From NCBI GenBank assembly GCA_028286645.1, contig JAQBRF010000004.1, positions 18,830 to 82,829 on the forward strand: a DNA stretch of 64,000 bases, read 5' to 3'. Made by a program: the position numbers and the translations under genes. The stretch is from Candidatus Nomurabacteria bacterium (GTDB taxonomy: Bacteria; Patescibacteriota; Minisyncoccia; Phycocordibacterales; UBA5272). Of this stretch, positions 10,659 through 63,239 are shown piece by piece; within the stretch, counting starts at the first letter, position 1, and each line of letters opens with the position of its first letter. A model generated the notes under the pieces. The model did no database searches, was not told the origin of the DNA, and saw nothing but the letters and a program-made list of their open reading frames with translations.

Positions 10659-10662
10659 ATAT

Positions 10663-32600: not shown

Positions 32601-35600
32601 GGTAATTTAAATGTAGGAACTTCTTCAACCCCGACACTGTTTGCTAACACGGCCACAGGAAATGTGGGGATTGGGACTTCAACTCCTGGCTCTACTCTCA
32701 CAGTTGCGGGCACTGGGTTATTTACCAGCAACCTTTCAACTCTTGGCACTTTAGGGGTCAGCGGACAGACTACCTTAACAACAGCATCCTCAACTGCATT
32801 TACTGCCACGACTCTCTTTTCCACAACGGGGACTATTGCAAACTTAATAAATACTAATGCAACCTCATCTAATTTATTTGCAAGTCTTGGGACGCTGGGA
32901 GCCTTAACGGTAACTGGTCAAACTGTTTTATCTAACGCTTCTACCACCAACCTAACAGTCTCTGGAAACCTATACAGTACCAATCAAATTACCACTACAG
33001 AAACAGTAACTAACTCTTCCACTACCAACCAAACAACTTCTGGTAACACCTACTTCTCCGGATTAACCGCAGGTTCTATCCCATTTATTGGTGGAGGTGG
33101 CTTACTAAGCCAGAACAATGCAAATCTATTCTGGGACAATACGAATGCGAGGTTAGGGGTGGGGACGACGACGCCGGGAGCACTTCTAACCGTTTCTTCT
33201 TCTACCGCAACGGGAACTACTGGATTATTTAGCATAGCGACTTCATCAAATCCTCTGCTTAGTGTGCTGGCAAATGGAATTATTCAATTGAAAACTGGCA
33301 GGGTTAATAATGGAGTGCAATTTATAGGTGGAGTGGGAGGAAGTTTAGAATTTACTAACTCTGCAAGCGGCGTATTTTCTGCACAAGGTAATGGTCTAGG
33401 ACAAGTGACATGGAATGGAACAGAAGTAGATTTAGGAAATAACTTCGGCGTAGCGGGAAGATTCAATTGTGTGTCGGGAAGCTGCCGAACAAGCTTTAAC
33501 AGTACAAATTTTCCTGTAGCCACGGCGCAAAACTTTTTCAAGTCTAATGCAGATGGAAACATCGGAATGATCATTGCTCAGAATTCTGTATCACAAACAG
33601 GAGACTTATTTCAGTTAACAGATTCAGCCGGGACATCTGTACTCTCTACATTTTCAGCATCTGGCAGTTTAGGTATCGGTTCCACCACTCCCGGCTCCAA
33701 ACTGTCTATAACCGGAACAAGCGGAGCCACTACGCCGCTATTTACTGTCGCTTCCTCTACAAACTCTGTAATATTTAATGTGCTTGCTAATGGAAATGTA
33801 GGAATTGGTACTACAACACCAGATCAGAAACTTGTCGTTGAGGGGAATAACCCAGCAATTGCGATTAACAACACCGGATCTGGAAGTGGAAATTTCCCTA
33901 TATTTATATTAAGACATGCTGGCGCAGACAAATCATATTTATATTGGGACAATGCAAATAGTTTTACAAAATTTAGTTCTGCAGGAGCCTTGCGGTTTGA
34001 TACAAATGGCTTAGGAAATACAAATATGACTCTTCTTGCTAATGGCAACCTCGGCATCGGTACCACCACTCCCTCCACCAAACTCTCCGTTGCCGGCAAT
34101 GGCCTCTTCGACGGAGTTGTAACAGCATCTAACTTCGTAGCAACGTCGACCGCACCTTCCACATTTACTAATGCAACTATTACAAATGCTTCTACCACAA
34201 ATACTACCGGGACAGGACTTACATTTACTAATGGATTATTCTTAAATTCGCTTGCTTCTAACGGTACATTAAATATTACAGGTCAAACTGTCCTAGCTAA
34301 CGCTTCCACCACTAACCTCTCAATCTCAGGAAATCTTTATGCACCTAATTTTCTTGGAACAACAGGATCCTTTAGTACTTTAAGCGCAACGAATGCTTCT
34401 ACTACTAACTTTACTAATTCAAACAATTCATACTTCTCCGCCCTCACCGCAGGCTCCATCCCATTTATTGGTGGAGGTGGACTACTAAGCCAGAACAATG
34501 CAAACCTATTCTGGGACAATACGAATGCGAGGTTAGGGGTGGGGACTACGACACCCATAGCTAAGCTAAGCGTATCCGATGCAACTAATTATGGAAACGT
34601 AACTGCTGATCAAACAAAGTTCGGAAGCTATTATTTATATTCTCCCCAAGCTGTTATTACAGGAACTTCTACTGCTCCAGCAGGAACGTATATTGGAGTT
34701 AATAGCGATTTAAATGGAAGCAATATTTCACTAACCTCTTCTAGCAATTTCATAGGGACTAATTTAAGTTCTATTAAAGGGTCTGTGTCAGGCTCTCCCG
34801 TGGTTAATCTAAATCTTAATGCAAATACGGGACTGGGCTTTGTATCTACTGCTGCAATCGAAGGAAATGCAAATGTAACTCCCGTTTATATCAGCGGAGA
34901 TCAATTATTCTTTAATTCCTATGGAGGACAGTTTACAAACACTAGTGGAAATGGAGTATCTACGACTCCAACATCAAATATATATGGTATTAATGCATCA
35001 TCAAATAGTAATTTGGCGAGAGGATCTCATTATGGAGGTAATTTTATCGCTGCAGGAACAGCGTCAAGTAATTATGGGGTAAGAGTTGCAAGCGTATCCG
35101 GAGCTGGAAGTAATTATGGATTAATGATTGATACTGTGGCGGCATCTTCTACTAACTATGCGCTTTATTCAGGTGCATTAGCGCAAAGCTATTTTGCGGG
35201 CAACGTCGGAATTGGCACGCTGTCTCCTACGGGGAAGTTTTCGATTATCACTTCACCAAGCGGTATGATAGACGCTCCAGCGATGGATATACTATCGACT
35301 CATGCTATCGGTTCTGTTACGACCTCGGGGGTGCGTACGTTTACTATGGCAAGTTCGACATATAATCCTTCAGCCACTCTTAGTAATAGTAGCGTTTCAG
35401 GAACTAATGTAATTATTGCAAACGGAAACACTCAGAATATTAATTTAAACAACTTCACATTAAGTGACGTAACAGGAGTTGGAGCGAGAAACGCTCTAAC
35501 AGTAAATGGCTATACTGCAACTCTTACGGGTAGTCCAGTAATAAATGATACAAATCCTGATGGCCTAGGCCAAGTGATAACAGTTGCGGGTTTTAGTGGA

Positions 35601-38600
35601 AACGTTAGCGTAACTCCAGCTGTTACTAGTCTTGTAAATATTGGGAATTTCAATTCCATAGCAGGTGAGTTCAATAATACTAGTTCTGATGGCGGTTCTA
35701 ATTTATCTTCTCTTGCCTATGGCATCAAAGTATCTAACACGGCTACTCTTGCTACGGCTAACGCTAGTGATCTTTATGGCGGATTCTTTAATGTTTCTGG
35801 TACAGCCACTAATGCCTACGGCCTTAAGGTAAATGTAATCGGGTCTACAAATAATCATGGTATGCTCATAAGCTCAGTTTCAGGAGGAGCTAGCAATTAT
35901 GGTTTGCGTATCGACACCGTGGCCGCATCCTCTACTAACTATGCGCTTTATTCAGGTGCATTAGCGCAAAGCTATTTTTCAGGCAATCTTGGTATCGGTA
36001 CAACTTCTCCAACTGAAAAACTCTCCGTTGCCGGCAACGGCCTATTTGACGGAGTAGTAACAGCATCAAATTTCTTTGCGACTTCCACCACCCCATCAAC
36101 ATTTATAAATGCTTCCACTACTAACCTAACAGTCTCAGGAAACCTATATAGTACTAACCAAATTACAACCACAGAAACAGTAACTAATTCTTCCACTACC
36201 AACCAAACAACTTCTGGTAACTCCTACTTCTCTGCTTTAACTTCCGGCTCTATCCCATTCATTGGTGCAGGAGGATTACTATCCCAGAACAACTCTAATC
36301 TCTTCTGGGACAACACGAATGCGAGGTTAGGGGTGGGAACGAGTACGCCAGTTAACGCTTTAACTGTGGTGGGTAATGGATTATTAACAGGAAGCTTAAC
36401 AGTAGGGAACGGAAGTACTAATGCCATAGTAGATATTAATGGTCTTTCATCAAATAGTGCTTTGCTTAGATTCTTGCGAAGCGGTACGGAAGCAGGAAGA
36501 ATAACATTTGCGAATAGTGCAGATATGACTTTCCAACTTGGTTCTAGTCCAGCAGAAATGATGAGAATTACTTCTGCGGGTAACATTGGAATCGGTTCCA
36601 CCACTCCTGGATCAAAGCTTTCTGTTACTGGTGCTTCTGGCAGTATTGCACCATTATTTACAGTCGCCTCATCAACGAACTCTGTACTATTTAATGTATT
36701 AGCGAATGGAAATGTTGGGATAGGAACGACCACCCCCCTTGCTGCTCTCCATGTCACAACCCAAGTGGCCGATATTGCTTACTTTAATAGCTCCATAAGT
36801 CCGCTGGGAAGATTATTTATAGCAGCACGTGGCGGACCAAATGGAGAGATAGAAATAGGAAACCATGATGGAGCTTACAGATTGCTGGACGTTCAGGGTT
36901 CGATACTTACATTTGGTGTGAGTGGTACTGAAAAAATGAGGATTGACGCATCTGGTAATATTGGTATCGGATCGACAACTCCAACGGCGAAATTCACAGT
37001 GTCCGGAGATAATGGAGCCGTGTCATCAGACAGCTTGGTGGTTTTCGGAGATAATTTAAATTCTGTAACAGGAGCTACCACAGCGAAACTTACAATTGGT
37101 AATATAGACGGTAATAGTGAACTTTTGATTGGGCAAGACGGAACACATAACTTGGTAAATGCTTGGATATATAATGCGACAGCGGCTAGTGGTTACGGAC
37201 TTATCGCAGGATATGGCGGAAATAATAATATAGTTCTCCAAAGGGACGGAGGAAATGTTGGAATAGGAGCTACCACTACTCCATCTGCTCGTCTTTCTAT
37301 AAAAGGAATAGGCACTACTACTGGTATCAATTTTCAGACTACTAACTCAAGCAATGTTCCGTTGTTTAGTATTTTAGATAATGGAAACGTGGGGATTGGA
37401 ACTTCTAGTCCAATAGCAAATTTACAAATTGGAAACACTACATCAGCCTCAACCGCTTCCCCAGTCACTTTATCACTTGGAGGAACCTTCAGTTCTGTCG
37501 CTGGGGCTAACTTGAAATTAAAATTATTCGATAGCGGAGCAAACGTCTACGGTCTCGGAGTATCAGCGAATTCTCTCGATGTATCTTCAGCGGCGGCATT
37601 AAATTTTTATACAAACGCAAGTACCACTCCAAGCATGACAGTGGCTGCGACAGGAAATGTTGGAGTTGGAACAGGCGCTCCGGTTTCGACCTTAAACGTA
37701 AATCAGTTAGCTGGAACTACCAAAGGCATATCCATTACAGGAGATGAAACATTTGCATCAGGTAATGGGTCTATAACATCTGGAGTGAGAATTGCCCTTG
37801 GGGTATCAAGAGCTAATAATCGTCAATTATGGCTTGGAGATATTGCCGCTTATGGAAGCTCGACAGCGGGACTTTTTAGATATAACACAGGGCAAACAGG
37901 CTGGGGAGGATTTGATGTGGTGAGTGGCGATGGTTCTAGTAGATTTCTTACAGTTGCGGGTAGTGACACTTCTAATGTTGGAATAGGATACAACGGATCA
38001 CCTGTTGACCCGACTTTATACACAGGAAAGTTAAATGTATTTTCTTATAACGATTCAGCTGCTTCTACTACCTTAAACTTAAGACATTTCGGAACAGCAA
38101 GTGGAAATTATTTAGATATAAAAAATAGCGCTGGAACCTTGCTGGCGACATTTACAAATGCTGGAAATATGGGAATAGGTGTAACATCTCCGACCTCGCT
38201 TCTATCGATTGCGTCTACTACAGCAAGTGGAGCCACAGGATTATTCTCAGTAGCCAGCTCATCTTCTATTTTTAATATACTTGCTAATGGAAACGTAGGG
38301 ATAGGTACAACAACTTCGATTCAAAAACTTGATGTAAATAGTTCCACATTTTTAGCAAACTCCGTTAATGGAGCATACGTAACAAGTGATAGTGCAGTAA
38401 CTAACAGCGCATATCTGGCTTCCAATGCTTATTATAATGGATCTAGTTGGCAGAAACCTTTTGCTCTTAAATCGGCCATATTTGGTTCAGCTGGTTCAGG
38501 AGCGTCGAAGGGGTTTTATATATATGGATCTGAAAGCACAACAGCCGGCACAATCTCAGACTTTGAAGAAAGGTTTAAGGTCCTTACTACAGGAAATGTA

Positions 38601-41600
38601 ATTATGGGAGTGGGTGCTGGAGGAGGCAACGTCGGCGTCGGCACCACCACCCCCTCCACTAAACTCTCCGTTGCCGGCAATGGCCTATTTGACGGAGTGG
38701 TAACAGCATCAAACTTTGTTGCTACTTCAACTACTCCTTCTACATTTATAAATGCTTCTACTACTAACCATACAAACTCTGGTAACAATTACTTCTCTGC
38801 TTTAACTTCCGGCTCCATCCCATTTATTGGTGCAGGCGGCTTACTAAGCCAGAACAATGCTAATCTGTTTTGGGACAACACTAATGGGAGGTTAGGGGTG
38901 GGGACGACAACGCCAGGATCCCTCCTTACTGTCTCATCTTCCACAGCAACAGGGACTACTGACCTCTTCTCGGTTTCTACATCATCACCAATATTTAACA
39001 TACTTGCGAATGGCAACATCGGAATCGGGACAACAACCCCGACAGACAAACTTTTTGTTTCTGGTACGTTTTCAGCGGGAACAAGTACGCTAAATAACCT
39101 TATTGTTACAAATACTAGCACATCAACATTTGCTGGTGCGGTACAAATTACAAAATCTACAGTGGGACCTACTACCGTATTAACATTGAAAAATGGCCAA
39201 TTTAATGTAGGAGATACTTCAGATATACTTTTCTCTCACGGCAACTTGCAAGCTTTTTCAAAAATTAGCTCATCACTTCCCGGTAGTAATCAGACCCATC
39301 TAGCCTTCTACACTAGTTCAAATACAAACTCTTTAGTTGAAGCGATGAGGATTGATGGAAATGGAAAGGTGGGAATAGGAACATCAAGCCCAGCTAATTT
39401 ACTTCACATATCTGGAAATGGCGATAGTCGAGTGATGTCTGAAACAACAGGGGCAGATACTGTAGGCACTGCGGGTTTTGTTATGAAAGGAGGAGGAACA
39501 AACGCACAATGGCAAATATTTACTAACCGTTCAGATCTTGCCGGAGCTGCAGATAATTTTGCCATTCGTAAAAATGCCGGCACGACAGGAGTAAAGTTGG
39601 TCATTCAAGATAACGGAAATGTCGGTATTGGAACAACCACACCTATTTATTCCTTAGATGTAGTCGGTAATATTCGTACGGCTGGTGCTGCTTCTGGTTT
39701 CATTATGAATAACCGAGCGACAAATCAGACTTCAGCACAATGGTATAGTCCAACAGCTGGAGAAACAAGGCTCTTTGACCATGTTGCAGGATTGGATCGA
39801 TTTACTATAAATTCGTCCGGAAGCGTAGGTATTGGAACTACTACCCCTGGTAACACTTTAAGCGTTGAAGGTTCGGGTAACGTAGCTAGATTCGGCACAT
39901 CGGCAAATGCATTTTCATTCATTCAGGTAGATTCTAATAATGCAACAATTAAGAATGTATTCGGAACGGATATTAGCGGTACTCCCACAGGATTCTTAGG
40001 AACTCTTACCAATCATGATCTCATTCTTCGTACAAATAATACAGAAAAGGTACGTATAACAACTGGTGGAAATGTCGGTATTGGAGTAAGCCCCGCTCTC
40101 GCAAGACTACAAGTAAACGATGGTGGCGGTACTGCTGCGAGTGAAATTTTAAGTTTGCAAACAGGTTACGCAGCTAACAGCGCCCAAAAAGCCTTAACCT
40201 GGAGAGATGGGGTAAATATTACAGGCCAAATAGACACAAGATACGATGGCACATCAATCGATATGGTCTTTGGACATCTTTATAATTCTGGTTATAACAC
40301 AACGGATAGAATGGTGATTAAAGGTACAGGAAATGTGGGTATCGGAACGCTTGCGCCGTTTAGTAGACTACATGTAGCCCAAGATGTAACACAATATTCT
40401 ACATCGGGAACTTTTGCTCAATTGGAAGTTACGGGTGGAACAAATATTAACCAAAGACTGGCTATTGGATATAACACATCTACGAACGTCGGTTTTATTC
40501 AAGCTATAATAAATGGAGTTTCATTTCAGCCGCTTGCTCTCCAGCCGCTGGGTGGTAATGTCGGTATTGCGACATCAACCCCAGGACAAGCTCTTGCTGT
40601 AGTTGGTACCATCCAGCAATCTGCCGCAAAGAGCTGTGCTCTTTCATCGAATGCCTCAGGAGATATCATTTGTACGTCTGACGAGCGTTTGAAAGATATT
40701 GCTGGAATATATAATGGAGGCATCGGACAATTGCTTTCGATTAATCCAATCAGATTCAATTATAAAAATGAATCATACCAGCACGTTGGATTCTCTGCGC
40801 AAAATATCGCATCGGTTCTTCCAGAAGGTGCTCCAATCCAATCTAATGGATTCTATGGATTAGACTCAAATGCAGTACTTGCTCTTACACTTAATTCCGT
40901 GAAAGATATAGCTCATAGAATCGATTTCTCAAATGCTCCAAACTCTGCATCCCTTATTATAGATAACTTAGGAGGAATCATGGCTAAAAACTTTATGACT
41001 GACACCACTTCGTCAGTTGCAGAAAGGTTCCCAGCAGAAGAAGCGGTGGATGTAGGAACTGTAGTGGCATTTGGAGACTCATCATATTCATTTAATGACA
41101 TTCATGCATCATCTACTGACACATACAGCATGTCAGGTGTTAGAAAGGCTCGCACTCAAGGAGAAGCAATTGGTGTGGTCACATCAAATGCCGGACTTAT
41201 AACAGGAACATCAAGCAATGGCGGCGTACCGGTGGTATTTTCTGGACGCACTGTCGTTCAAGTTACGAATGAATATGGCCCAATTCAAAAAGGAGATTAT
41301 TTAACACTTTCTACTACTACTCCAGGAAAAGCTACGAAGATGTCAGGAGAAGGACAATCTCTCGGTGTAGCGGTATCCGCTGATAATGGTTCTGGCAGAA
41401 TCCTTGTAGTACTTAATACTGGATATCAAAAGGTTGATACTAACAGCCGGGCAATTTCTACAAGCGGAATGCTTACCACTGGAAACTTGGATCTTAATGC
41501 CAATGGCGTAGCGATTTTGAATATTAAATCTCTTGCGTCCGCAAACGGCACTTGGTCTATCAATGAAGATGGGCGTATCATCGCAAAGATTCTTTGTCTG

Positions 41601-41894
41601 GAAGATGTATGTATTGATAAAACACAGCTTACAAATCTTCTTAATAATTCTGGCCAAGGCGGAGCTCCTGCTTCTATTCAAAACTCTACTTCAACTCCAT
41701 CAGGGGATGTATATGCAAATGATGTAAATCAGGGAACTCTATATTCCTCATCCACTCCTTCAGGCACGCATAGCGGAATGGTAGCCGGCACTTCTACGGA
41801 GGCCATGCCAGCAATTGATACAGCCCCAATTGTAAGTGAACCGGCAAGCGGGGGTGTATCAGTTGCGCCCACAGATGGGGCAGTAACACCATAA
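29640..41894 (+). CDS. Giant secreted fibre-like surface protein (4084 aa). Signal peptide, collagen-like Gly-X-Y stretch, many N/T/S-rich repeats (GNVGIGTTTP-type), C-terminal intramolecular chaperone/peptidase S74-like domain
   Basis: A single uninterrupted ORF. Signal peptide MKKGIKKCGAKVWVIFFTFILISSFSANSSVHA. Collagen-like GSPGPKGPSGVDGKDGLDGMSGQNGANSQGG. Repeats LLSQNNANLFWDNTNARLGVGTTTP recur x4 or more. C-terminal SDERLKDI...NPIRFNYKNESYQHVGFSAQNIASVLPE matches the endosialidase/tail-fibre auto-chaperone. Confidence 0.85.
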   Translation: MKKGIKKCGAKVWVIFFTFILISSFSANSSVHAAESKILNFPVYPLQSVIRFISFKTFSLYSVSSHAYALAHNLPQFAPTKLSAIPSIKTDELSPLLNIGNSASQNTVILSDAVNELGCELVKFIRINLCAGESNFVTPKLAMNKVDNNDLVIDSAIPRQIAIVGEELHSPLIESIKNFALNLNTATVPKQQPYEEIQNDIPDLKFNFPRLAEFSLLPFKQYSSFATGDNKASAQGISVPVKKSTLPFLDRLSLSVFCKIKSLSGVVDENRCSYDSLAGNFLINNLANLNDGNTQPSTLNSSGATSTSTGSSNTPQDTFTNSGNISKPVYITQYLTKYITLAGSPGPKGPSGVDGKDGLDGMSGQNGANSQGGFGGFINPSSSYVAPTPYVAQSLVGISTIGYLRDTTIEYAKFNYGTANNLSLISPTVDNGVFNGTNIFNGGVRFNDNVDINILTATSSNFLNSSTTNSFANNFSAVNSILGDAIITNANVTNSTTTNQSTTNLNLTNGTTSNQFINNLAVINSTTTNASTTNSYISNLLNDNSTTTNLVVTNASTTNATTTNSFISKLWSTLANITDLIIGNATTTNLFAANATSTNFFSTLARITGLTVDNSVTTNATTTNGYISNLTNDNGNIGNLVVTNASTTNGTTTNSYIANLANTNAVITNATTTNSFIARLWSTLGDITGLNTVNLTATNATSTNFFSTLARITGLTVDNSVTTNATTTNSFIANLTADNAVINNINFGSASSTNSTSTNGFIANLTMNNGTSTNFFTQNLSVGNTNVSGNQTINGTFTVLGTTTLGAATTIVGNILLGTSTSNFITVNGLFNSHLVPAQNITYDLGSPSFYYRTLYVDTITANTVSAVSSTINGTTNSSFSINADNVSADAEDSTLVFFRGLVTPNAVIRWNSISKRLEANMSINVMNETPVTGSTTFSVQGGAGQGTTPLFKLLDNSENTLSYFDQNGSLGIGTSTITSGAKVDVWGNLNVGTSSTPTLFANTATGNVGIGTSTPGSTLTVAGTGLFTSNLSTLGTLGVSGQTTLTTASSTAFTATTLFSTTGTIANLINTNATSSNLFASLGTLGALTVTGQTVLSNASTTNLTVSGNLYSTNQITTTETVTNSSTTNQTTSGNTYFSGLTAGSIPFIGGGGLLSQNNANLFWDNTNARLGVGTTTPGALLTVSSSTATGTTGLFSIATSSNPLLSVLANGIIQLKTGRVNNGVQFIGGVGGSLEFTNSASGVFSAQGNGLGQVTWNGTEVDLGNNFGVAGRFNCVSGSCRTSFNSTNFPVATAQNFFKSNADGNIGMIIAQNSVSQTGDLFQLTDSAGTSVLSTFSASGSLGIGSTTPGSKLSITGTSGATTPLFTVASSTNSVIFNVLANGNVGIGTTTPDQKLVVEGNNPAIAINNTGSGSGNFPIFILRHAGADKSYLYWDNANSFTKFSSAGALRFDTNGLGNTNMTLLANGNLGIGTTTPSTKLSVAGNGLFDGVVTASNFVATSTAPSTFTNATITNASTTNTTGTGLTFTNGLFLNSLASNGTLNITGQTVLANASTTNLSISGNLYAPNFLGTTGSFSTLSATNASTTNFTNSNNSYFSALTAGSIPFIGGGGLLSQNNANLFWDNTNARLGVGTTTPIAKLSVSDATNYGNVTADQTKFGSYYLYSPQAVITGTSTAPAGTYIGVNSDLNGSNISLTSSSNFIGTNLSSIKGSVSGSPVVNLNLNANTGLGFVSTAAIEGNANVTPVYISGDQLFFNSYGGQFTNTSGNGVSTTPTSNIYGINASSNSNLARGSHYGGNFIAAGTASSNYGVRVASVSGAGSNYGLMIDTVAASSTNYALYSGALAQSYFAGNVGIGTLSPTGKFSIITSPSGMIDAPAMDILSTHAIGSVTTSGVRTFTMASSTYNPSATLSNSSVSGTNVIIANGNTQNINLNNFTLSDVTGVGARNALTVNGYTATLTGSPVINDTNPDGLGQVITVAGFSGNVSVTPAVTSLVNIGNFNSIAGEFNNTSSDGGSNLSSLAYGIKVSNTATLATANASDLYGGFFNVSGTATNAYGLKVNVIGSTNNHGMLISSVSGGASNYGLRIDTVAASSTNYALYSGALAQSYFSGNLGIGTTSPTEKLSVAGNGLFDGVVTASNFFATSTTPSTFINASTTNLTVSGNLYSTNQITTTETVTNSSTTNQTTSGNSYFSALTSGSIPFIGAGGLLSQNNSNLFWDNTNARLGVGTSTPVNALTVVGNGLLTGSLTVGNGSTNAIVDINGLSSNSALLRFLRSGTEAGRITFANSADMTFQLGSSPAEMMRITSAGNIGIGSTTPGSKLSVTGASGSIAPLFTVASSTNSVLFNVLANGNVGIGTTTPLAALHVTTQVADIAYFNSSISPLGRLFIAARGGPNGEIEIGNHDGAYRLLDVQGSILTFGVSGTEKMRIDASGNIGIGSTTPTAKFTVSGDNGAVSSDSLVVFGDNLNSVTGATTAKLTIGNIDGNSELLIGQDGTHNLVNAWIYNATAASGYGLIAGYGGNNNIVLQRDGGNVGIGATTTPSARLSIKGIGTTTGINFQTTNSSNVPLFSILDNGNVGIGTSSPIANLQIGNTTSASTASPVTLSLGGTFSSVAGANLKLKLFDSGANVYGLGVSANSLDVSSAAALNFYTNASTTPSMTVAATGNVGVGTGAPVSTLNVNQLAGTTKGISITGDETFASGNGSITSGVRIALGVSRANNRQLWLGDIAAYGSSTAGLFRYNTGQTGWGGFDVVSGDGSSRFLTVAGSDTSNVGIGYNGSPVDPTLYTGKLNVFSYNDSAASTTLNLRHFGTASGNYLDIKNSAGTLLATFTNAGNMGIGVTSPTSLLSIASTTASGATGLFSVASSSSIFNILANGNVGIGTTTSIQKLDVNSSTFLANSVNGAYVTSDSAVTNSAYLASNAYYNGSSWQKPFALKSAIFGSAGSGASKGFYIYGSESTTAGTISDFEERFKVLTTGNVIMGVGAGGGNVGVGTTTPSTKLSVAGNGLFDGVVTASNFVATSTTPSTFINASTTNHTNSGNNYFSALTSGSIPFIGAGGLLSQNNANLFWDNTNGRLGVGTTTPGSLLTVSSSTATGTTDLFSVSTSSPIFNILANGNIGIGTTTPTDKLFVSGTFSAGTSTLNNLIVTNTSTSTFAGAVQITKSTVGPTTVLTLKNGQFNVGDTSDILFSHGNLQAFSKISSSLPGSNQTHLAFYTSSNTNSLVEAMRIDGNGKVGIGTSSPANLLHISGNGDSRVMSETTGADTVGTAGFVMKGGGTNAQWQIFTNRSDLAGAADNFAIRKNAGTTGVKLVIQDNGNVGIGTTTPIYSLDVVGNIRTAGAASGFIMNNRATNQTSAQWYSPTAGETRLFDHVAGLDRFTINSSGSVGIGTTTPGNTLSVEGSGNVARFGTSANAFSFIQVDSNNATIKNVFGTDISGTPTGFLGTLTNHDLILRTNNTEKVRITTGGNVGIGVSPALARLQVNDGGGTAASEILSLQTGYAANSAQKALTWRDGVNITGQIDTRYDGTSIDMVFGHLYNSGYNTTDRMVIKGTGNVGIGTLAPFSRLHVAQDVTQYSTSGTFAQLEVTGGTNINQRLAIGYNTSTNVGFIQAIINGVSFQPLALQPLGGNVGIATSTPGQALAVVGTIQQSAAKSCALSSNASGDIICTSDERLKDIAGIYNGGIGQLLSINPIRFNYKNESYQHVGFSAQNIASVLPEGAPIQSNGFYGLDSNAVLALTLNSVKDIAHRIDFSNAPNSASLIIDNLGGIMAKNFMTDTTSSVAERFPAEEAVDVGTVVAFGDSSYSFNDIHASSTDTYSMSGVRKARTQGEAIGVVTSNAGLITGTSSNGGVPVVFSGRTVVQVTNEYGPIQKGDYLTLSTTTPGKATKMSGEGQSLGVAVSADNGSGRILVVLNTGYQKVDTNSRAISTSGMLTTGNLDLNANGVAILNIKSLASANGTWSINEDGRIIAKILCLEDVCIDKTQLTNLLNNSGQGGAPASIQNSTSTPSGDVYANDVNQGTLYSSSTPSGTHSGMVAGTSTEAMPAIDTAPIVSEPASGGVSVAPTDGAVTP

Positions 41895-56602: not shown

Positions 56603-57313
56603 TTAATGTGCAACCGTTTCGGCATCGCCGGATTCTATCGCATCTTTGATCCGTTCTGCTATATATTCAGGAGAGTCTGCCTGAGGCAAGTTTCCGCGAT
56701 TCCTTGATGCCATGCCGACGGCCACCTCATCGCTTTTGATAGCATTTTTCCCAAAGTCCGTATCAGTTAATCCTGGAAGCATAATCCCTACGATAATATT
56801 ATCTTTTGCAAGTTCTGCTCGTGCGGTAAGCGATATAGCATTTAATGCATACTTGGTAGATGCATATGCTCCAAGATAGGGGATATAAGCGCGCGTTACG
56901 AGTGAGCTTATGTTTAAAATCATACCGCCACCTTGTTCCCGCATATGAGGAATTACCTTTTGCATGGCGATGAGAACACCGACTACATTTAATTCAATTA
57001 CTTTTTTGTATTCGAGAGCGTTAACTTTTTCTATAGCTCCATATATTCCTTGTCCGGCATTATTTATAAGGATGTCGATGCGACCGAATTGTTTAATGGT
57101 TGTGTTTATTAAATTATTTATATCATCTTCGCTAGTCATGTCGGCCATTATTGGGAATGAGTTCGGGATTTCCTTAGAAATTTCTTCGAGTTTATCTTTT
57201 GACCGTGCTGATAGTACGACAGTTGCGCCTTCGCTTGCCAAGAGTCTCGCAGTTGCTAAACCAATGCCATAGGATGCTCCTGTTATAATGATGACCTTAT
57301 TTTTTATTTCCAT
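56603..57313 (-). CDS. Short-chain dehydrogenase/reductase (SDR)
   Basis: TGASYGIG Rossmann motif, NNAG, and YxxxK (YASTK). Confidence 0.75.
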   Translation of the reverse strand: MEIKNKVIIITGASYGIGLATARLLASEGATVVLSARSKDKLEEISKEIPNSFPIMADMTSEDDINNLINTTIKQFGRIDILINNAGQGIYGAIEKVNALEYKKVIELNVVGVLIAMQKVIPHMREQGGGMILNISSLVTRAYIPYLGAYASTKYALNAISLTARAELAKDNIIVGIMLPGLTDTDFGKNAIKSDEVAVGMASRNRGNLPQADSPEYIAERIKDAIESGDAETVAH

Positions 57314-57467
57314 ACTTTTATCTTACAACAAATTGAATGAAAAAGAAAAATCCAATTAACCAAGTACTATAATTCCTAGCTATTTTTACTATTTTGCTTC
57401 GCATCTTAATAAATCTGTAAACTTACTTGGATTGCATATAAATAAAAACACCCTCGAAAATCGAGGG

Positions 57468-57731
57468 TCATTCTACAAGCTCTACACTGACGAATTCGTA
57501 CTTGTCCGTTGCGTTACGAGCCAGCTGTTCCACCTCAGTTGGTGTTAGCTGTTCGTCTACATCCGCCGTGCAAGTTATCACGTGCGGTCTTTCCGCGAAA
57601 GGACTTTCCTTCGGATCGTGGTAAGTCGCTATCCACCTTCTTTTCCCTTCCGGCGGATTATTCGGAAGGGATTGGTCCTGTGAAAAGGTTTTCATACTTG
57701 TCTCCGTTACTGTACTCCTTAAAACTAGCAA
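57468..57731 (-). CDS. Hypothetical protein, high-GC
   Basis: Terminator CCCTCGAaaatCGAGGG + T-run directly downstream at 57442-57468. Confidence 0.35.
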   Translation of the reverse strand: MLVLRSTVTETSMKTFSQDQSLPNNPPEGKRRWIATYHDPKESPFAERPHVITCTADVDEQLTPTEVEQLARNATDKYEFVSVELVE

Positions 57732-57812
57732 TTGCAGAAGCGGGAGTCAAGGAAATAAAAAGCCGCCCCTCGTCCGAAGAAAAGGTTTGGCTTTTCTCAG
57801 AACGAAGAGCGG

Positions 57813-58157
57813 TTACCAACTGTAATGGGAAGGGTCGTTGCTCACCGGAATTTCGTGCGCAGGATCGAAACCCCACTTCCTTACTTCGTAATCCCGGAGG
57901 AGAACGAAGTACTTGAGTGAAGGTTTCCCGTCCGGCTCGCAGTGCGCCGGCGATGAGCAGATGATGGTCGAAGGTATAAAACCTGCTTTCCGCCAGATCG
58001 GATCGTATGCCTTCGGCATGAGGTATAGTGGTTCATTGCGATGAACCCACCATTCCACCATGTCTTTTCCGACGCTGTAAGTGCAGCCGCCGATCATGGC
58101 AAGCAGGAAAGCACCCGCTGCCCAACCTTTCAAGTTATCAATCATTTCGCGATTCAC
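57813..58157 (-). CDS. Hypothetical membrane-anchored protein, high-GC, GTG start after GAAGGAGG
   Basis: Driven by promoter cassette copy b (58192-58228). Confidence 0.45.
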   Translation of the reverse strand: MNREMIDNLKGWAAGAFLLAMIGGCTYSVGKDMVEWWVHRNEPLYLMPKAYDPIWRKAGFIPSTIICSSPAHCEPDGKPSLKYFVLLRDYEVRKWGFDPAHEIPVSNDPSHYSW

Positions 58158-58191
58158 TCGGCGCCTCCTTCATTGTAAGCAGAGAAATGTT

Positions 58192-58228
58192 CAATTACTA
58201 ATATATCATATATACTGGTAATTGTCAA
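58192..58228 (-). promoter_or_regulatory. sigma70 promoter TTGACA-17-TATATT with a palindromic spacer (promoter cassette copy b)
   Basis: Minus-strand read: TTGACAattaccagtatatatgaTATATT. Confidence 0.5.
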
Positions 58229-58232
58229 TATC

Positions 58233-58253
58233 TTGCTCCGCGGTAGGGGTATC
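58233..58253 (-). repeat. tRNA 3'-end-like fragment (TTGCTCCGCGGTAGGGGTATC), att-like remnant
   Basis: Similar to the tRNA-Asn 3' end TTGCTCCGTGGGTAGGGATCG. Confidence 0.4.
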
Positions 58254-58479
58254 TTCCACTAGTAAATTTTTGTCGTCACAAAAAATTTCTCGCGGACCGC
58301 TCCTCGCCATTTTTACTGCTGTAAAAATACTACTGCGGACTTTCGATCCCTACACGCATGTGAAGCAGTTCACGTGCTCCACGTAGCTCAAAAAATCAAA
58401 GGCCGCCATTTCTGGCGACCTAAGATTTTACTAGCTCCAAGGGTTGATCACTAGGAGAATTTTTTTTGGAAAAAGAAAA

Positions 58480-58716
58480 CTATGCTATTAACCGGGGGTT
58501 AGGGGGATTAGAATTAGCTAGTTTTTCAAAATCTTCATTACTCATTCCTACATTTTTAGCTAAAGTTTCTGCATACTCAAACCAATCTTTTTGTAAATAA
58601 TTCTTAATGCCTCTGATGGTTTCTTCTCTATAGATCTCATCTTTTAGAAATCGTTCTGGATCACCCTTTACGTCTATTGTCGGTTCCCTATTTTCTTGAT
58701 TTTGATTGAATTGCAT
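58480..58716 (-). CDS. Hypothetical small protein
   Basis: ORF + downstream terminator at 58392-58420. Confidence 0.3.
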   Translation of the reverse strand: MQFNQNQENREPTIDVKGDPERFLKDEIYREETIRGIKNYLQKDWFEYAETLAKNVGMSNEDFEKLANSNPPNPRLIA

Positions 58717-58776
58717 ATATATTGTTTAGTATATATTTAGTGTGGCAAAGTATATAAAGACTTACTACAAGCTTGT

Positions 58777-58798
58777 TTTGCTCCGCACCTGGGACGAT
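58777..58798 (-). repeat. tRNA 3'-end-like fragment (TTGCTCCGCACCTGGGACGATC), direct repeat of 60028-60048
   Basis: 21/22 identical to the copy at 60028. Confidence 0.45.
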
Positions 58799-59209
58799 CT
58801 TTGAACTTACTTGTGGAAAAGACAGGGAATAATCAACTTAGTTTATTAGAAAAAGCAATGTTAGAATATATCTAAAGGAGGGTGGCCCATGAACACCATG
58901 CGGAGTTTGCTTGGCATGATTTGTACTGAAGCATCTGAAGGGATAGGAAAAGGATCTCCGGAAGGAGTTCCTCCGGAAGTCCGGACTAAGTCCACTCTTC
59001 CCCCGATGAAATTCGATTCCGAGCTTTTCTGTAATCCCGACGGAACACCAGACTCAGAAGAGTAATCTCCTGCATCTGTTCTCACGAGAGTGACGAGCAG
59101 GTGCAGGATTTTTATTTTGTGCGGTATGGTGATCAGATGTGTATTTTGAAGATATATAAAAAGAAACCGCCCGAACAGACGCGGTGTCTTTTCGAGCGGT
59201 GGGGCACTT

Positions 59210-59848
59210 TCAGTCGAGTTGCCAGCCTTCGGCGATCATTTCCTTACGGATTTGATCGACGAACTTGGGGCAGAGAAGCGGAATCATGAGCGCCCAGAGT
59301 TCCTTCGCGTGAGCGAGCACCGTAGGGTGCTGGAACATCGCATGGTAGCAATCGAAGTCCTTCTGTTCCCAGTCGCCGTTGTGGTCGATGGTCGAGCAGA
59401 CGAGCGTGTTCGCCGCCGCATCCCATCGATGAGTCTCGATCCGCATGAGGAGATCTTCTCTCCACTGCGGCCAGCCTTCAATGCGACGCTTGATGACGAC
59501 GCGTGCCCCCATCTGAACTGCATATGCGGTGAAGCGCAAGCCCTTCGAGTTAAGGGCTCGGGAAAGAAATTTCGCATTCCTGCCGATAGCGAGAATGCGC
59601 CCGCGCTTGGTACGTTCCTCGGTACTTCCGCGCTTGGTATCGCGAAAGTATAACCACTCGCCGACACGCTGCCCATTGCCACCGATCTCCACCATTTCCA
59701 TCTCGCTCGGATCGAACGGACAGCCGATGATGGGGTCGGTGCTAAATATAGCGACGCCGAGTTGCCGAGCACGAGGGGTGAAATCCACCCCACCCTTGTT
59801 CGCCCACGTTTTCCAATTCCCAGGATTACGGACTTTGCTGATATTCAT
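59210..59848 (-). CDS. Hypothetical protein, high-GC, inside the module bounded by the 58777/60028 direct repeats
   Basis: ORF. No motif recognised. The opposite-strand ORF 59219..59653 is the alternative. Confidence 0.35.
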   Translation of the reverse strand: MNISKVRNPGNWKTWANKGGVDFTPRARQLGVAIFSTDPIIGCPFDPSEMEMVEIGGNGQRVGEWLYFRDTKRGSTEERTKRGRILAIGRNAKFLSRALNSKGLRFTAYAVQMGARVVIKRRIEGWPQWREDLLMRIETHRWDAAANTLVCSTIDHNGDWEQKDFDCYHAMFQHPTVLAHAKELWALMIPLLCPKFVDQIRKEMIAEGWQLD

Positions 59849-60027
59849 GGCAATCCTTCCATTGTTAGGGATTCAAAAGGCATAAATATGCCCAAACCAT
59901 ATTCAAATGACAGTATACCATAAATATGTTAGATGTCAATAGAATGATTATTATGTAGGGATCGCGTCTCGCTTTGCTCGACATCCTACATTTTTATAAT
60001 CACTTCGTTCATTAAAAATGTGGACCT

Positions 60028-60048
60028 TTGCTCCGCACCTGGGACGAT
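60028..60048 (-). repeat. tRNA 3'-end-like fragment, direct repeat of 58777-58798
   Basis: Seen in sequence. Confidence 0.45.
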
Positions 60049-60135
60049 ATCCGATCTGTTTGTTAGAGGAGAAGTAAAAAAGCCCACGAGAAGCGGTTGG
60101 GCTAATCGTGGGCTAGGCTTTCTAGGTAACTTCCG

Positions 60136-60519
60136 TTACCAGCGGCTGGCGCATCGAAAATAACTTTCATAGTACATCTCTTCTTTAACTGTCCGTCCAC
60201 AGAATGAACAGACGGCGCCTGTTTTAAGTGGTTCGTGGTCGACATGCACAAACCTATAGGCATAACGATACATTGCCTCTATCGCTTCCTGGCGTTCTTT
60301 AAAGCTGGGGTGCTCTTTTCCGTCTAGTTGATAATGGGCAACCCACTGCTCATCAACTAGTTCAATGTCACCCATTGGACGTTCACCCCACGGGGTAGCC
60401 TCCCAAAGATTGTAGCGCTGGTTGTGCCCATCTACGTGAACGAGCTCAACTACCCGTGCCACATCCGCCCTCCAAATGTCTTTAAGGCGGAGTGAGACTT
60501 TTTCGGATTCTTTGCTCAC
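60136..60519 (-). CDS. Hypothetical protein, high-GC (GTG start after AAGGAG)
   Basis: SD AAGGAGtggaacGTG. The upstream part of the track ORF is AT-rich and probably not coding. Confidence 0.35.
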   Translation of the reverse strand: MSKESEKVSLRLKDIWRADVARVVELVHVDGHNQRYNLWEATPWGERPMGDIELVDEQWVAHYQLDGKEHPSFKERQEAIEAMYRYAYRFVHVDHEPLKTGAVCSFCGRTVKEEMYYESYFRCASRW

Positions 60520-60583
60520 GTTCCACTCCTTGTGTACAAGATTTAACAAGACTATACAATATAAAAATACTTCTGTCAAAGAT

Positions 60584-60605
60584 GAGCTCCGTGGGTAGGA
60601 CTCCC
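60584..60605 (-). repeat. Degenerate tRNA-Asn 3'-end fragment (GAGCTCCGTGGGTAGGACTCCC)
   Basis: Seen in sequence. Confidence 0.35.
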
Positions 60606-60756
60606 TTTTCCCTTTGGTCGAAACTCACTATTTTTATTGTCATTCCATTTCTTAAAAATAGGAGCCTTTGGTTCGATCCCAAACTCATAAAGCTAGAAAT
60701 AACAAAAGCCCGACATGAAGTCGGGCTTTTGTTATTTTGCTCCCAATGCTGTCCAA

Positions 60757-60822
60757 GTTCAGAACCCTGAATTGGAGAAGTATAGATATTGAAATGAAAC
60801 AATTTAGTTTTGTATAAAAAAA
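60757..60822 (-). repeat. R2 repeat copy A (~65 bp) immediately after a terminator
   Basis: About 85% identical to 61349-61414. Confidence 0.5.
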
Positions 60823-60858
60823 ACCCACTCGCCGAAGCGAGGGGCTGAAGCGAGTGTT

Positions 60859-61254
60859 TCAGCACTCGATGCTCATATCTTGTACTACCAAAAGTTCGAA
60901 TGGGTCCAGCTCATAAGCTACCATGCTGTAACCCTCTTCGTGACTGTTTTTCTTCGAAACAGTCCACTTGAGAATCGCAACTCCCATGTAAGGATGCTGT
61001 GAAAGCGGAGGAGTGCGGAGACTTTGTATGTCGAGCGTGAGAACGCCCATCGCGATCTGATCGGGATAAACCTGCTTGAGCTCTTCGAGGATCTGCTTTC
61101 GTCCGTAGAGTATGCCGTCTCTGCTAGCATACACGGCATCAGGAGCGTACCCATTACAGAATCCTTCTAAGTCTCCAGCATTCCAGAGTCTAATGGCTCT
61201 GTGATTGAATTCAGTTACTTTTTGAGCAAAAGCAATGTCATAAGGTCCGCTCAT
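60859..61254 (-). CDS. NTF2-like / SnoaL-like (DUF4440-type) protein
   Basis: Fold-typical length and pattern. Terminator at 60817-60844. Confidence 0.4.
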   Translation of the reverse strand: MSGPYDIAFAQKVTEFNHRAIRLWNAGDLEGFCNGYAPDAVYASRDGILYGRKQILEELKQVYPDQIAMGVLTLDIQSLRTPPLSQHPYMGVAILKWTVSKKNSHEEGYSMVAYELDPFELLVVQDMSIEC

Positions 61255-61348
61255 TTATTTCTCCCAGAACATATGCGTAAAAACGCGATAAGCACACACT
61301 ACAATATTAAAATAATAACGTCAACCTCTGGCTCCCTCTACTAAACAA

Positions 61349-61414
61349 ATTCAGAACTCTGAATTGGAGGAATATAAAAATTGAAATGAAACAATTGAGT
61401 TTTGTATAAAAAAG
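61349..61414 (-). repeat. R2 repeat copy B
   Basis: Seen in sequence. Confidence 0.5.
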
Positions 61415-61628
61415 AAAACCCGCTGGCTAGGCGGGGTGGAGATAGGCGCGAAGCCTTCTCACGCGGGGACGTATTCCATTTTGGAGCGCCCCGTGTAGTA
61501 CTGCGTGTTATTTCTGTGGTCGTTGCAGACCTCGTAGAGCGCGATGTGACACGGTAGCCACCCTGAACAATGCTTGTGCTCATTTTTTGCCACCAGTAAC
61601 TTTGCATAGTTAGCTCCTCAGAATATGA
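61408..61628 (-). ncRNA. Short high-GC transcript unit: palindromic consensus promoter (61626-61665) to terminator CCCGCctagccaGCGGG + T-run. Either an sRNA or a small Cys protein
   Basis: SD GAGGAG + ATG at 61607, but the ATG frame is R/S/T-rich and runs through the terminator. An alternative frame gives HKHCSGWLPCHIALYEVCNDH. Confidence 0.3.
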
Positions 61629-61665
61629 CAAATACCAGTATATCATATATACTGGTATTTGTCAA
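61626..61665 (-). promoter_or_regulatory. Perfect 39-bp palindrome containing TTGACA-17-TATACT on the minus strand and aTGACA-17-TATACT on the plus strand (promoter cassette copy c)
   Basis: TGACAAATACCAGTATAT-cat-ATATACTGGTATTTGTCA. Confidence 0.55.
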
Positions 61666-61801
61666 TATGTGGCTCCCTATAGTAAGTAAGTTCAGAACTT
61701 TAAATTGGGTACAAGTTGAGAAAGAGCTGAGGTGCTTGAGCCTAGTAGAAACCATCTTCTCCATTGTATAAAAACAGGAAGTGGCCAATAAATAAAGAAA
61801 T

Positions 61802-61993
61802 TTAACGTTTGAATGCAAAAGACATCAATATGATGATTAAGGCATTAAGAACCACCAACACTAAGACTGTCTGCCATTTTGCTGTAAGTGGATTATTTAT
61901 AATATAAACCGTATAGATTATTGCAACAATCGCAGCACCGAGAAAATTTCCTTTTATCATATTTTTATATTTATTTATTAAATTTATAAACAA
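61802..61993 (-). CDS. Small membrane protein
   Basis: ORF with TM segment. Low support. Confidence 0.25.
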   Translation of the reverse strand: MFINLINKYKNMIKGNFLGAAIVAIIYTVYIINNPLTAKWQTVLVLVVLNALIIILMSFAFKR

Positions 61994-61994
61994 C

Positions 61995-62240
61995 CTATCT
62001 TCTAAACAACTCTGAAAACTTTAACTTGAGAATTCCCAACAAATAAATAATTTCAAGAACACCTAAAGTGTGCACAAAGATAAATAAAATAAACCACAAA
62101 AGTTGGCCTCGTTTTGCTGAATGCCACAACCCAAGTCCTGCCCAAAAAAGACTCCACAGAATAACTAGAAAAAACGTTAGTTGATGTGTGTGTATCCAGA
62201 TGGATAATCCTACTCCTGATGAATTGTTCATATCTTTCAT
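61995..62240 (-). CDS. Small membrane protein
   Basis: ORF, 2-3 TM. Low support. Confidence 0.25.
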   Translation of the reverse strand: MKDMNNSSGVGLSIWIHTHQLTFFLVILWSLFWAGLGLWHSAKRGQLLWFILFIFVHTLGVLEIIYLLGILKLKFSELFRR

Positions 62241-62307
62241 TATACATCTTATTGTTAAAATAGTTCTTAAACCTATTTGGGTGTCATAATAAGCCTTGAT
62301 AAATAAG

Positions 62308-62329
62308 GCTCAAAAAAGTGCTCCGTGGG
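62308..62329 (-). repeat. Duplicate of the tRNA-Asn 3' end (GTGCTCCGTGGGTAGGGATCGG), about 150 bp from the intact gene
   Basis: 20/21 identical to 62474-62494. Confidence 0.55.
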
Positions 62330-62424
62330 TAGGGATCGGTCACAAAACTACTCGCTTTGCTCGAGAAAGTTTCGCGACCCCGTATTCGATCCCTAACGCA
62401 AGCAAAGCAGTTTGCTTGCTCCTT

Positions 62425-62466
62425 TAGAAACGAATTGAAAATACCAGAGAAAGAATCTCTGGTATT
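62425..62466. terminator. Palindromic terminator (ACCAGAGAaagaATCTCTGGT + U-rich) just 3' of the tRNA
   Basis: Seen in sequence. Confidence 0.45.
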
Positions 62467-62475
62467 TTCAATTTG

Positions 62476-62821
62476 CTCCGTGGGTAGGGATCGAACCTAC
62501 GACCAATTCCTTACATTTATCCTAAAGTTTCCTAAAGGGATGGACTATATCATCACCCGTATTTTTACAAATCGAGGGTGCAAGGCGCTTCGGACCAGTT
62601 TTATCTGGCACTACTCCTTTCGGATAGTCTCTACACCTTCCCCCCACTAATTTTGTTTTAAATATTTAAAACAAAATTAGTGGGGGGCTTGGCTCGGTAT
62701 TACCCTCCATCGGTTAGATGGGGAGGGCTTCACCGAATTCACCTTGTTTTTCAATTCACCTTACGATGAAAAGCTGCGTTTATTGCCACAGGGAACTGCT
62801 CTACCGCTGAGCTACCACGGA
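62476..62821 (-). tRNA. tRNA-Asn (anticodon GUU) interrupted in the anticodon loop by a group I intron. Exons 62821..62788 and 62513..62476
   Basis: 5' exon UCCGUGGUAGCUCAGCGGUAGAGCAGUUCCCUGU. 3' exon UAAGGAAUUGGUCGUAGGUUCGAUCCCUACCCACGGAG. Spliced loop is CU-GUU-AA. Acceptor 7/7, D, anticodon (G.U) and T stems all pair. Discriminator is G. Confidence 0.7.
62514..62787 (-). ncRNA. Group I self-splicing intron (274 nt) within tRNA-Asn
   Basis: It follows a U and ends in G. IGS GCAG pairs with exon CUGU including a terminal G.U. P7-forming R element GAGACUA and S element GAUAUAGUC are present. Confidence 0.6.
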
Positions 62822-62894
62822 ATATATAAACCTATTTGATTATAGCAATTTATGTGATTATGGCAACCTTAACACCAGATGTTATACTTAATTT

Positions 62895-63239
62895 ATGTTA
62901 AAGAGATGCAGTAAGCATGGTGAGACGAAACATTTCAAAAGATTAGATGCAACTTTTCGTTGTGGTAAATGTGCTTCTTTGTGGGTAATAAATAACAGAC
63001 GAAATAAAAAGCAGAAACTAATTAAATTATTTGGAGGAAAATGTATTGTTTGTGGATATGATAAATATGCAGGGGCTTTGGATTTTCATCATACGGATCC
63101 AAAAAATAAATCTTTCGCCTTAAGTGTTAAAGGGCTGTCTTATTCTTGGGAAAGCATTTTAGTTGAAGCGAAGAAATGTATTCTGGTATGCAAAAACTGT
63201 CATGCCGAAATTGAAGCCGACATTAATAAAGTAATTTGA
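62895..63239 (+). CDS. HNH endonuclease (free-standing)
   Basis: CxxC...HH...N...CxxCH pattern: CIVCGY...DFHHTDPKNK...LVCKNCHAEIE. Confidence 0.65.
   Translation: MLKRCSKHGETKHFKRLDATFRCGKCASLWVINNRRNKKQKLIKLFGGKCIVCGYDKYAGALDFHHTDPKNKSFALSVKGLSYSWESILVEAKKCILVCKNCHAEIEADINKVI

Follow-up and report, generated by a model that had tools for sequence, protein, structure and literature searches.

The window analyzed here is a stretch of 64,000 nucleotides of contig JAQBRF010000004.1 (positions 18,830 to 82,829 of the forward strand). Close to its end, on the minus strand, lies a tRNA-Asn(GUU) gene whose anticodon loop is interrupted by a small group I intron lacking an open reading frame (ORF). 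A gene for a free-standing HNH protein stands immediately upstream of the tRNA gene, and copies of the tRNA 3' end, each with an associated module, follow downstream (Table 1). Elsewhere the window encodes UvrC, a class I ribonucleotide reductase, DnaE, RNase J and a DUF5652 protein, with a GC content of 0.32-0.47 that mostly stays below 0.43. The intron and the HNH gene have relatives almost only in metagenome-assembled genomes (MAGs) of Patescibacteria. From the DUF5652 protein, the gene content and the origin of these homologues, the host molecule is apparently a chromosome of the Patescibacteria (Candidate Phyla Radiation, CPR).

Table 1. Features of the split tRNA-Asn locus and its surroundings. 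Positions are those of the window; paired strands are separated by a slash.
Feature	Position	Strand	Description and basis
Split tRNA-Asn(GUU) gene	62821..62476	-	Sequence, as in the preliminary description
tRNA-Asn 5' exon	62788..62821	-	34 nt; ARAGORN cloverleaf of joined exons
tRNA-Asn 3' exon	62476..62513	-	38 nt; ARAGORN cloverleaf of joined exons
Group I intron	62514..62787	-	274 nt; first nucleotide G 62787, omega-G 62514; Rfam RF00028, manual structure, RNAalifold, pair counts
P1	62774..62791	-	Exon CUGU and intron G1 (62791-62787) with CGCAG (62778-62774); manual structure
P2	62755..62770	-	Hairpin UUCAUC-GUAA-GGUGAA, 6 bp, GNRA loop; manual structure, RNAalifold
P3	62581..62746	-	CAAGGUG 62746-62740 with CGCCUUG 62587-81; encloses P4, P5, P6
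P4	62736-31 / 62699-94	-	UCGGUG with UACCGA
P5	62727-22 / 62708-03	-	CCCUCC with GGAGGG
P6	62693-92 / 62636-35	-	With extension
P6 extension	62640..62687	-	Perfect 48-nt palindrome, 24-bp arms, at the P6 tip
P7 pseudoknot	62543..62629	-	GACUA 62629-25 with UAGUC 62547-43; encloses P7.1, P7.2, P3', P8
P7.1	62624-15	-	UCC-GAAA-GGA
P7.2	62608-62595	-	CCAG-AUAAAA-CUGG
P8	62580-76 / 62558-54	-	
P9.0	62514..62541 (P9.0, P9 and omega-G)	-	A62541, U62540 with A62516, U62515; just before the terminal G
P9	62538-62521	-	Hairpin, GAAA loop, two U.U mismatches
Promoter-like site	62839..62866	-	TTGCCA-16 nt-TATAAT, TG before TATAAT; 11 of 12 consensus positions; consensus match only
Terminator-like hairpin	62433..62473	-	Perfect 18 bp; begins 3 nt past the tRNA 3' end
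Free-standing HNH endonuclease gene	62895..63239	+	114 aa; PHROG 2255 'HNH endonuclease', E 9e-26
Direct copies of the last 14-20 nt of tRNA-Asn, with preceding modules	62320-62475; 60586-60680; about 58235-58385	-	
Comparable modules in other loci			L013, L020, L021, L035, L043, L046, L055, L058, L062, L082, L092, L104, L116, L124, L137, L143, L149/L150

The 5' exon, TCCGTGGTAGCTCAGCGGTAGAGCAGTTCCCTGT, comprises an acceptor strand, the D arm, the 5' strand of the anticodon stem (GUUCC) and loop nucleotides C32 U33 G34 U35, and thus terminates in CUGU. The 3' exon opens with UAAGGAAU and supplies U36 A37 A38, the 3' strand of the anticodon stem (GGAAU), the variable loop, the T arm and the other acceptor strand, with a G discriminator and no encoded CCA. 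Once joined, the exons are recognized by ARAGORN as tRNA-Asn(gtt), a regular cloverleaf of 72 nt with anticodon GUU and discriminator G73, and they are 79% identical to the uninterrupted tRNA-Asn of a metagenome contig (L126). The preliminary description of this DNA had proposed a tRNA-Asn(GUU) with a 274-nt insert in the anticodon loop, an insert that follows a U and ends in G, and exons that join into a canonical tRNA-Asn with the loop CU-GUU-AA and discriminator G; the sequence reads exactly so. A promoter-like site that stops 17 nt ahead of the tRNA 5' end and the terminator-like hairpin are putative expression signals of the gene. Default ARAGORN reports no tRNA in the entire 64-kb window, and with introns allowed it miscalls the split gene as His(gtg), placing the intron after position 37. 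A miscall of this kind belongs to the annotation failures that have been reported for such genes (PMC13011429).

The splice register was examined among all eight positions that are compatible with a 7-nt anticodon loop. The register between positions 35 and 36 is the only one of the eight that combines a U at -1 with a G at omega. Register 33/34, corresponding to a Thr(UGU) product, also has U at -1, but its intron would end in A; the His registers (36/37 to 38/39) have G or C at -1.

The intron starts with GGCAAU and ends with AAAUG. It matches the Rfam family Intron_gpI (RF00028) at 62804..62521 with 70.8 bits (E 6e-16; gathering score 50 bits), over model positions 1-253 and not truncated, and this is the sole Rfam match at gathering score across the 64 kb. 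The fold of the precursor has a z of -8.3 relative to shuffled sequences. The helices, assigned by hand and then checked for standard pairing, follow the subgroup-IA-like order P1-P2-P3-P4-P5-P6-P7-P7.1-P7.2-P3'-P8-P7'-P9.0-P9. In P1 the exon CUGU faces the guide GCAG (62777-62774), with a U35.G wobble at the 5' splice site and an L1 loop of 8 nt. Both exons contribute to the anticodon stem GUUCC/GGAAU. The elements GAGACUA and GAUAUAGUC are present, and their GACUA and UAGUC constitute P7. P7.1 and P7.2 (62624-62595) are located between P7 and the 3' strand of P3, which is the mark of subgroup IA, and by this architecture the intron is subgroup-IA-like. The distance from P7 to P7' is 82 nt, compared with 36-57 nt in 13 compact introns of the genome set.

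The extension of P6 is a palindrome that is far longer than the P6 of the homologues. No second copy of it was found in the window or in 201 collected loci, except in L001, which is the same locus. This contig, from an independent Logan assembly, terminates within the palindrome. The sequence of the locus is also present in run SRR13312974. When the surroundings of the locus were scanned against Rfam with permissive settings, the only matches were microRNA-like ones on the palindrome, attributable to chance.

The fold was compared with homologous sequences in the following ways. (i) RNAalifold, applied to the window and nine short homologues (10 sequences) with no structure supplied, returned the anticodon stem, P1, P2, P3, P4, P5, P6, P7.1, P7.2, P8 and P9.0, with compensatory changes on both sides at 39 of 60 pairs. 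(ii) Pair counts in a plain alignment were used to score the named structure together with its P7 pseudoknot and P9. In this alignment 94.9% of the cells are paired, compared with 36-45% when the 3' partners are slid by 1-3 columns; double changes are found at 44 of 71 pairs, and none of 500 shuffles was equally good. Compensatory changes are distributed among P2 (6/6 pairs), P3 (3/7), P4 (4/6), P7.1 (1/4), P7.2 (7/7) and P8 (4/5), whereas P7 (in 10 aligned homologues) and the portion of P1 contributed by the exon are invariant and therefore give no covariation signal either way. (iii) The pairs next to the splice sites were scored in 55 homologues. In the P1 extension, intron nucleotide +1 and the base preceding GCAG form a standard pair in 93% of them (G-C 21, A-U 13, C-G 12). 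Standard pairing holds for the first P9.0 pair in 100% and for the second in 98%, with covariation (C-G 36 and U-A 12 at the second pair). Since the P1 extension and P9.0 both covary, both splice sites are backed independently of the tRNA argument. A MAFFT alignment misplaced the peripheral hairpins. By blastn, the window intron is 70-85% identical to many members of its class over the aligned segments, and its core shares 70-75% identity with homologues.

The distribution of such genes was assessed by scanning contigs of one genome per species with an exact pattern in which the 3' strand of P7 is followed, after a gap, by G|UAA and the T arm. At least 120 loci were obtained; nearly all come from Patescibacteria MAGs, and a few carry the labels Omnitrophota, Elusimicrobia or other. 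Among the matches listed, a script that required both the acceptor stem and the anticodon stem to be complementary resolved 88 loci (89 with the window) as tRNA-Asn(GUU) interrupted after CUGU, and about a third of these genes (31 of 89) have long introns of 437-723 nt. All of the resolved introns end in G, and their lengths range from 194 to 723 nt. The claims and checks of the preliminary description that concern the intron itself were also borne out: the GCAG guide pairs with exon CUGU through a terminal U.G and its extension covaries, the GAGACUA and S elements form P7 as GACUA/UAGUC, the Rfam score exceeds the cut-off, and all helices of the manual P1-P9 fold are present, P3 and P7 included. 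The group I interpretation is thus backed by the Rfam match, by covariation and by about 90 homologous loci among the matches listed.

A second, compact type of group I intron, without P7.1 and P7.2, occurs at the same 35/36 site of tRNA-Asn in L094 (3054-3349), L127, L130, L133, L140 and others. Against RF00028 the L094 intron reaches 44.3 bits, short of the 50 required, and compact introns of this kind are consequently missed by scans at gathering score.

Introns of this class have been described before. A preprint of Williams in 2020 extended the intron-bearing tRNA types to 21 (bioRxiv 10.1101/2020.01.27.920355), and it lists the present site as Asn.4Ug, a class cited by Nakagawa et al. 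(bioRxiv 10.1101/2020.01.27.920355; PMC13011429). The latter authors (preprint 10.1101/2025.07.03.662931; mSystems 2026, PMC13011429) surveyed the complete genomes of 95 Patescibacteria, in which 15 tRNA-Asn and 3 tRNA-Asp genes proved to carry group I introns at 35/36, and assigned 25 of the 28 introns at this site to subgroup IA. They showed the tRNA-Asn 35/36 subgroup-IA intron to be the typical tRNA intron of Patescibacteria. The notion in the preliminary description that an Asn(GUU) host and a 35/36 site would be unusual is therefore outdated. Nakagawa et al. also reported that standard tools overlook or miscall such genes, tFind and ARAGORN often giving Thr(UGU), and they demonstrated that a tRNA-Asn intron and a tRNA-Asp intron splice themselves precisely in vitro, using an omega-G-to-C mutant as the negative control; the tRNA-Asn intron came from GCA_016700035.1, and its spliced product was joined at 35/36 (PMC13011429).

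Like the members of that class, the window gene combines a tRNA-Asn host, the 35/36 site, U at -1, omega-G and an IA-type core with P7.1 and P7.2; its 274 nt fall within the published range of 184-894 nt, and it too is overlooked or miscalled by standard tRNA finders (PMC13011429). It differs in the combination of an intron without ORF and an HNH gene just outside the tRNA gene, and in the 48-nt palindrome of P6. The window intron is thus a further member of a described and experimentally validated class, and not a new kind. The classical bacterial tRNA introns are those of cyanobacterial tRNA-Leu(UAA) at 34/35, tRNA-fMet at 33/34, and Azoarcus tRNA-Ile and Agrobacterium tRNA-Arg at 36/37, all of subgroup IC3. 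As in these, the window intron is small, of the self-splicing type and inserted in the anticodon loop after a U, with the exons held by the anticodon stem, and most of the classical introns likewise lack an ORF. Unlike them, it is of the IA type with P7.1 and P7.2 and occupies site 35/36 of another host tRNA (PMC13011429). The class is apparently far commoner in draft genomes than the 15 published cases suggest, and default tRNA finders that overlook an essential tRNA gene distort the completeness estimates of small genomes.

From the combined structural and comparative evidence, we consider it very likely (a probability of roughly 0.9) that the gene at 62821..62476 is a functional tRNA-Asn(GUU), split between U35 and U36 by a self-splicing IA-type group I intron. 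By analogy with the known mechanism of group I introns and with a homologue studied in vitro (PMC13011429), the tRNA gene would be transcribed from its own promoter-like site, and the intron would fold such that exon CUGU pairs with the internal guide GCAG in P1, with U35.G at the cleavage site. An exogenous guanosine in P7 would attack the 5' splice site. P9.0 would place the terminal G (62514) in the same pocket, whereupon the 3'-OH of U35 would attack the 3' splice site, yielding joined exons with the anticodon loop CU-GUU-AA and a released linear intron. The exons would be kept together by the anticodon stem GUUCC/GGAAU.

Several points weigh against this assessment. No convincing P10 pairing was found between the start of the 3' exon (UAAGG) and the L1 loop. 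The two U.U mismatches of P9 could slow folding, as could the atypical 24-bp perfect palindrome of P6. Splicing in vivo at this locus is a prediction from homology and structure, and the assignment of the host is indirect. The visible sequence covers 64 kb, and a second tRNA-Asn may be located elsewhere in the genome. A dead copy, i.e., a tRNA-Asn pseudogene with a non-splicing intron, would fit the limited portion of the genome that is visible, the P9 mismatches and the odd P6 palindrome, the work being done by an uninterrupted tRNA-Asn encoded elsewhere. Such a copy is nevertheless very improbable: the core helices are all intact, the invariant nucleotides of the joining segments (J) and P7 agree with the family, the exons give a perfect cloverleaf, the promoter-like site agrees with the consensus at 11 of 12 positions, there is no other tRNA gene in the window, and where complete genomes have been published, there is usually no tRNA-Asn copy besides the interrupted one (PMC13011429). 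The chance that splicing occurs elsewhere in the loop, giving tRNA-Thr(UGU) at 33/34 or tRNA-His(GUG) at 36/37 to 38/39, is close to negligible despite the His(gtg) call of ARAGORN, the U at -1 of register 33/34 and the Thr(UGU) calls common for such genes, since these registers leave an A at the intron end or a G or C at -1, the P1 wobble falls on U35, covariation of the P1 extension and of P9.0 fits the 35/36 register, the exons resemble an uninterrupted tRNA-Asn, and the homologue sequenced after splicing was joined at 35/36 (PMC13011429).

The HNH gene is divergent from the tRNA gene on its upstream side, with 73 nt of spacer between them. In alignment, its product displays an intact CxxC...HH...N...CxxCH core, and its N-terminus bears a zinc-ribbon-like CxxH...CxxC segment, unlike the intron-encoded homologue. 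Pfam and NCBIfam provide no firm name for the ORF, the Pfam match being weak. The same family is found inside the introns: among the matches listed, tblastn identified an HNH homologue on the sense strand of 29 of the 31 long tRNA-Asn introns. Residues 31-113 of the window protein share 35-52% identity with these intron ORFs (40-52% in all but a few), and the intron-encoded ORF fills L1, where it lies after the 5' splice site and ahead of the guide GCAG. In three otherwise normal tRNA-Asn introns (L065, L095 and L038) L1 retains pieces of the HNH ORF, truncated or fragmentary, as would be expected if endonuclease genes are gained and then decay in a cycle.

A metagenome scan that used solely protein patterns from the window-type HNH yielded 31 full-length relatives with 60-76% identity, of which 28 adjoin a complete split tRNA-Asn(GUU). 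In 21 of these the genes are divergent as in the window, with gaps of 73-237 nt; in six the HNH gene precedes the tRNA gene on the same strand, and one shows the reverse order. The three geometries have no common flanking genes, indicating a linkage to the intron-bearing tRNA-Asn itself and not an ancestry of the neighborhood. Similarly, a relative from the genome set (L094) has only the HNH gene and the tRNA in common with the window, so that the linkage is not an inherited neighborhood. Two of the remaining three relatives are cut by contig ends. The third, in L126 (33-371, 68% identity), lies 105 nt upstream of the uninterrupted tRNA-Asn(GUU) at 476-548. The introns flanked by close HNH relatives are of two core types, 8 with and 15 without P7.1/P7.2. 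Judging from their substitution pattern, the HNH copies are under purifying selection: the ratio of nonsynonymous to synonymous substitution rates (dN/dS) is 0.04-0.31 (median 0.15) where synonymous divergence is unsaturated, and none of 33 copies contains an internal stop.

More distant relatives (37-55% identity) occur in large viral contigs within dense tRNA arrays (L153-L201 from metagenomes and L202-L281 from IMG/VR). In 64 of 80 viral loci a tRNA is located within 300 nt of the HNH gene, with a mean of 5.2 tRNAs per locus of about 6 kb; the tRNAs beside the HNH gene include Arg-UCU, Met, Ile-UAU, Asn and others. The IMG/VR scan revealed no close copy (at least 60% identity) of the window-type HNH.

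This distribution suggests that the HNH protein is a free-standing homing endonuclease partnered with the ORF-less intron in one mobile system. As a tentative proposal, to which we give somewhat less than an even chance, the two would engage in collaborative homing: the HNH enzyme, whose endonuclease activity and target we infer, would cut intron-less tRNA-Asn at or near 35/36, and the ORF-less intron and the HNH gene would form one mobile unit. The protein would mobilize the intron in trans; the intron would shield the host copy from cleavage, and during repair of the cut allele both the intron and the adjacent endonuclease gene would enter it by co-conversion.

Collaborative, or trans, homing is known from phages, where free-standing F-CphI acts with an ORF-less psbA intron in cyanophages and T4 mobE with the nrdB intron (Hausner et al. 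2014, PMC3984707; Wilson and Edgell 2009, PMC2790892). Homologues of the window HNH are also encoded within introns of this family, in line with the prediction of the endonuclease-invasion pathway (PMC3984707; PMC2790892). In contrast to these phage systems, the host in the window is a cellular tRNA gene and not a phage protein gene, the partnership is a proposal from sequence, and one HNH relative stands beside an uninterrupted tRNA-Asn. Free-standing homing endonucleases are also present in phage tRNA gene clusters, as exemplified by T4 SegB and the HNH enzymes of the phage T5 tRNA region. The distant HNH relatives likewise lie between tRNA genes in viral contigs, whereas the branch that includes the window protein occurs in contigs of bacterial (Patescibacteria-like) character and is associated with a single tRNA, the intron-bearing tRNA-Asn.

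Alternatively, the HNH protein may be an independent nuclease, selfish or domesticated, that inserts near tRNA genes and plays no role in intron mobility. This is a serious rival, to which we likewise give somewhat less than an even chance. It would account for the relatives in phage arrays beside many different tRNAs, for the close relative in L126 that adjoins an intron-less tRNA-Asn, and for flanked introns of two core types. The last two observations also count against homing, L126 in particular being hard to explain if the enzyme simply cut all intron-less alleles. An independent nuclease would not be expected, on the other hand, to belong to the same protein family as the ORF within L1 of these introns, nor to flank intron-bearing tRNA-Asn in 28 of 31 close relatives, in three geometries and without common flanking genes.

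If collaborative homing is correct, a single intron family of Patescibacteria would show the stages from a free-standing endonuclease to a mobile intron and back, these stages being visible through the HNH family in L1 of about a third of the introns and the decayed remnants in others. It would also contradict the published view that the mobility of these tRNA introns is limited, which was inferred from most of them having no endonuclease gene (PMC13011429). Moreover, if the enzyme is active on intron-less alleles, it would offer a simple selfish explanation for the persistence of the introns in reduced genomes. Nakagawa et al. did not look beyond the introns, and the flanking-HNH layout is not discussed there (PMC13011429). 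The HNH linkage goes beyond this published work, and both it and the tRNA-end modules described below merit further study.

Downstream of the tRNA gene, a block of small minus-strand ORFs extends over about 57300-62400. Neither Pfam nor PHROG has a match to its orphan ORFs, and GC is 0.42-0.46 within it, compared with 0.34-0.37 in the segments on either side. The block contains private repeats found nowhere else in the 64 kb, e.g., TCGTCCCAGGTGCGGAGCAAA (two copies) and AATTCAGRGTTCTGAAYTT (three copies), and no integrase was found in it. It is probably an integration hot spot at tRNA-Asn.

The copies of the tRNA end in this region are progressively decayed: the one at 62320 is exact, that at 60586 has 2 of 18 bases changed, and the one near 58240 is worse. 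Each is preceded by a module consisting of an inverted copy of the T-loop and T-stem of the tRNA, plus hairpins. In 17 other loci the intron-bearing tRNA-Asn is likewise followed by comparable modules, 18 in all, with lengths of 30-220 nt (mostly 145-215 nt). They track the tRNA sequence of each species, and most hold an inverted copy before the copy of the tRNA end, that of L035 being a perfect 22-nt reverse complement, while the inner cores are of at least three sequence types. We read the modules as probable remnants of serial site-specific integration at tRNA-Asn, possibly of non-autonomous elements bounded by attachment (att) sites. A small tRNA-minihelix-like RNA would be an alternative. 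The modules match no Rfam family, and RNAalifold on seven of them gives hairpins with a covariation term near zero, so that a structured RNA is not established.

A tblastn comparison of the window proteins with all loci collected showed only weak DUF5652 matches and revealed no synteny with them. A second block of ORFs without Pfam matches, in this case on the plus strand, spans 10100-15500, with a GC content of about 0.46, above that of its surroundings. A single plus-strand ORF of 4084 aa occupies 29640-41894.

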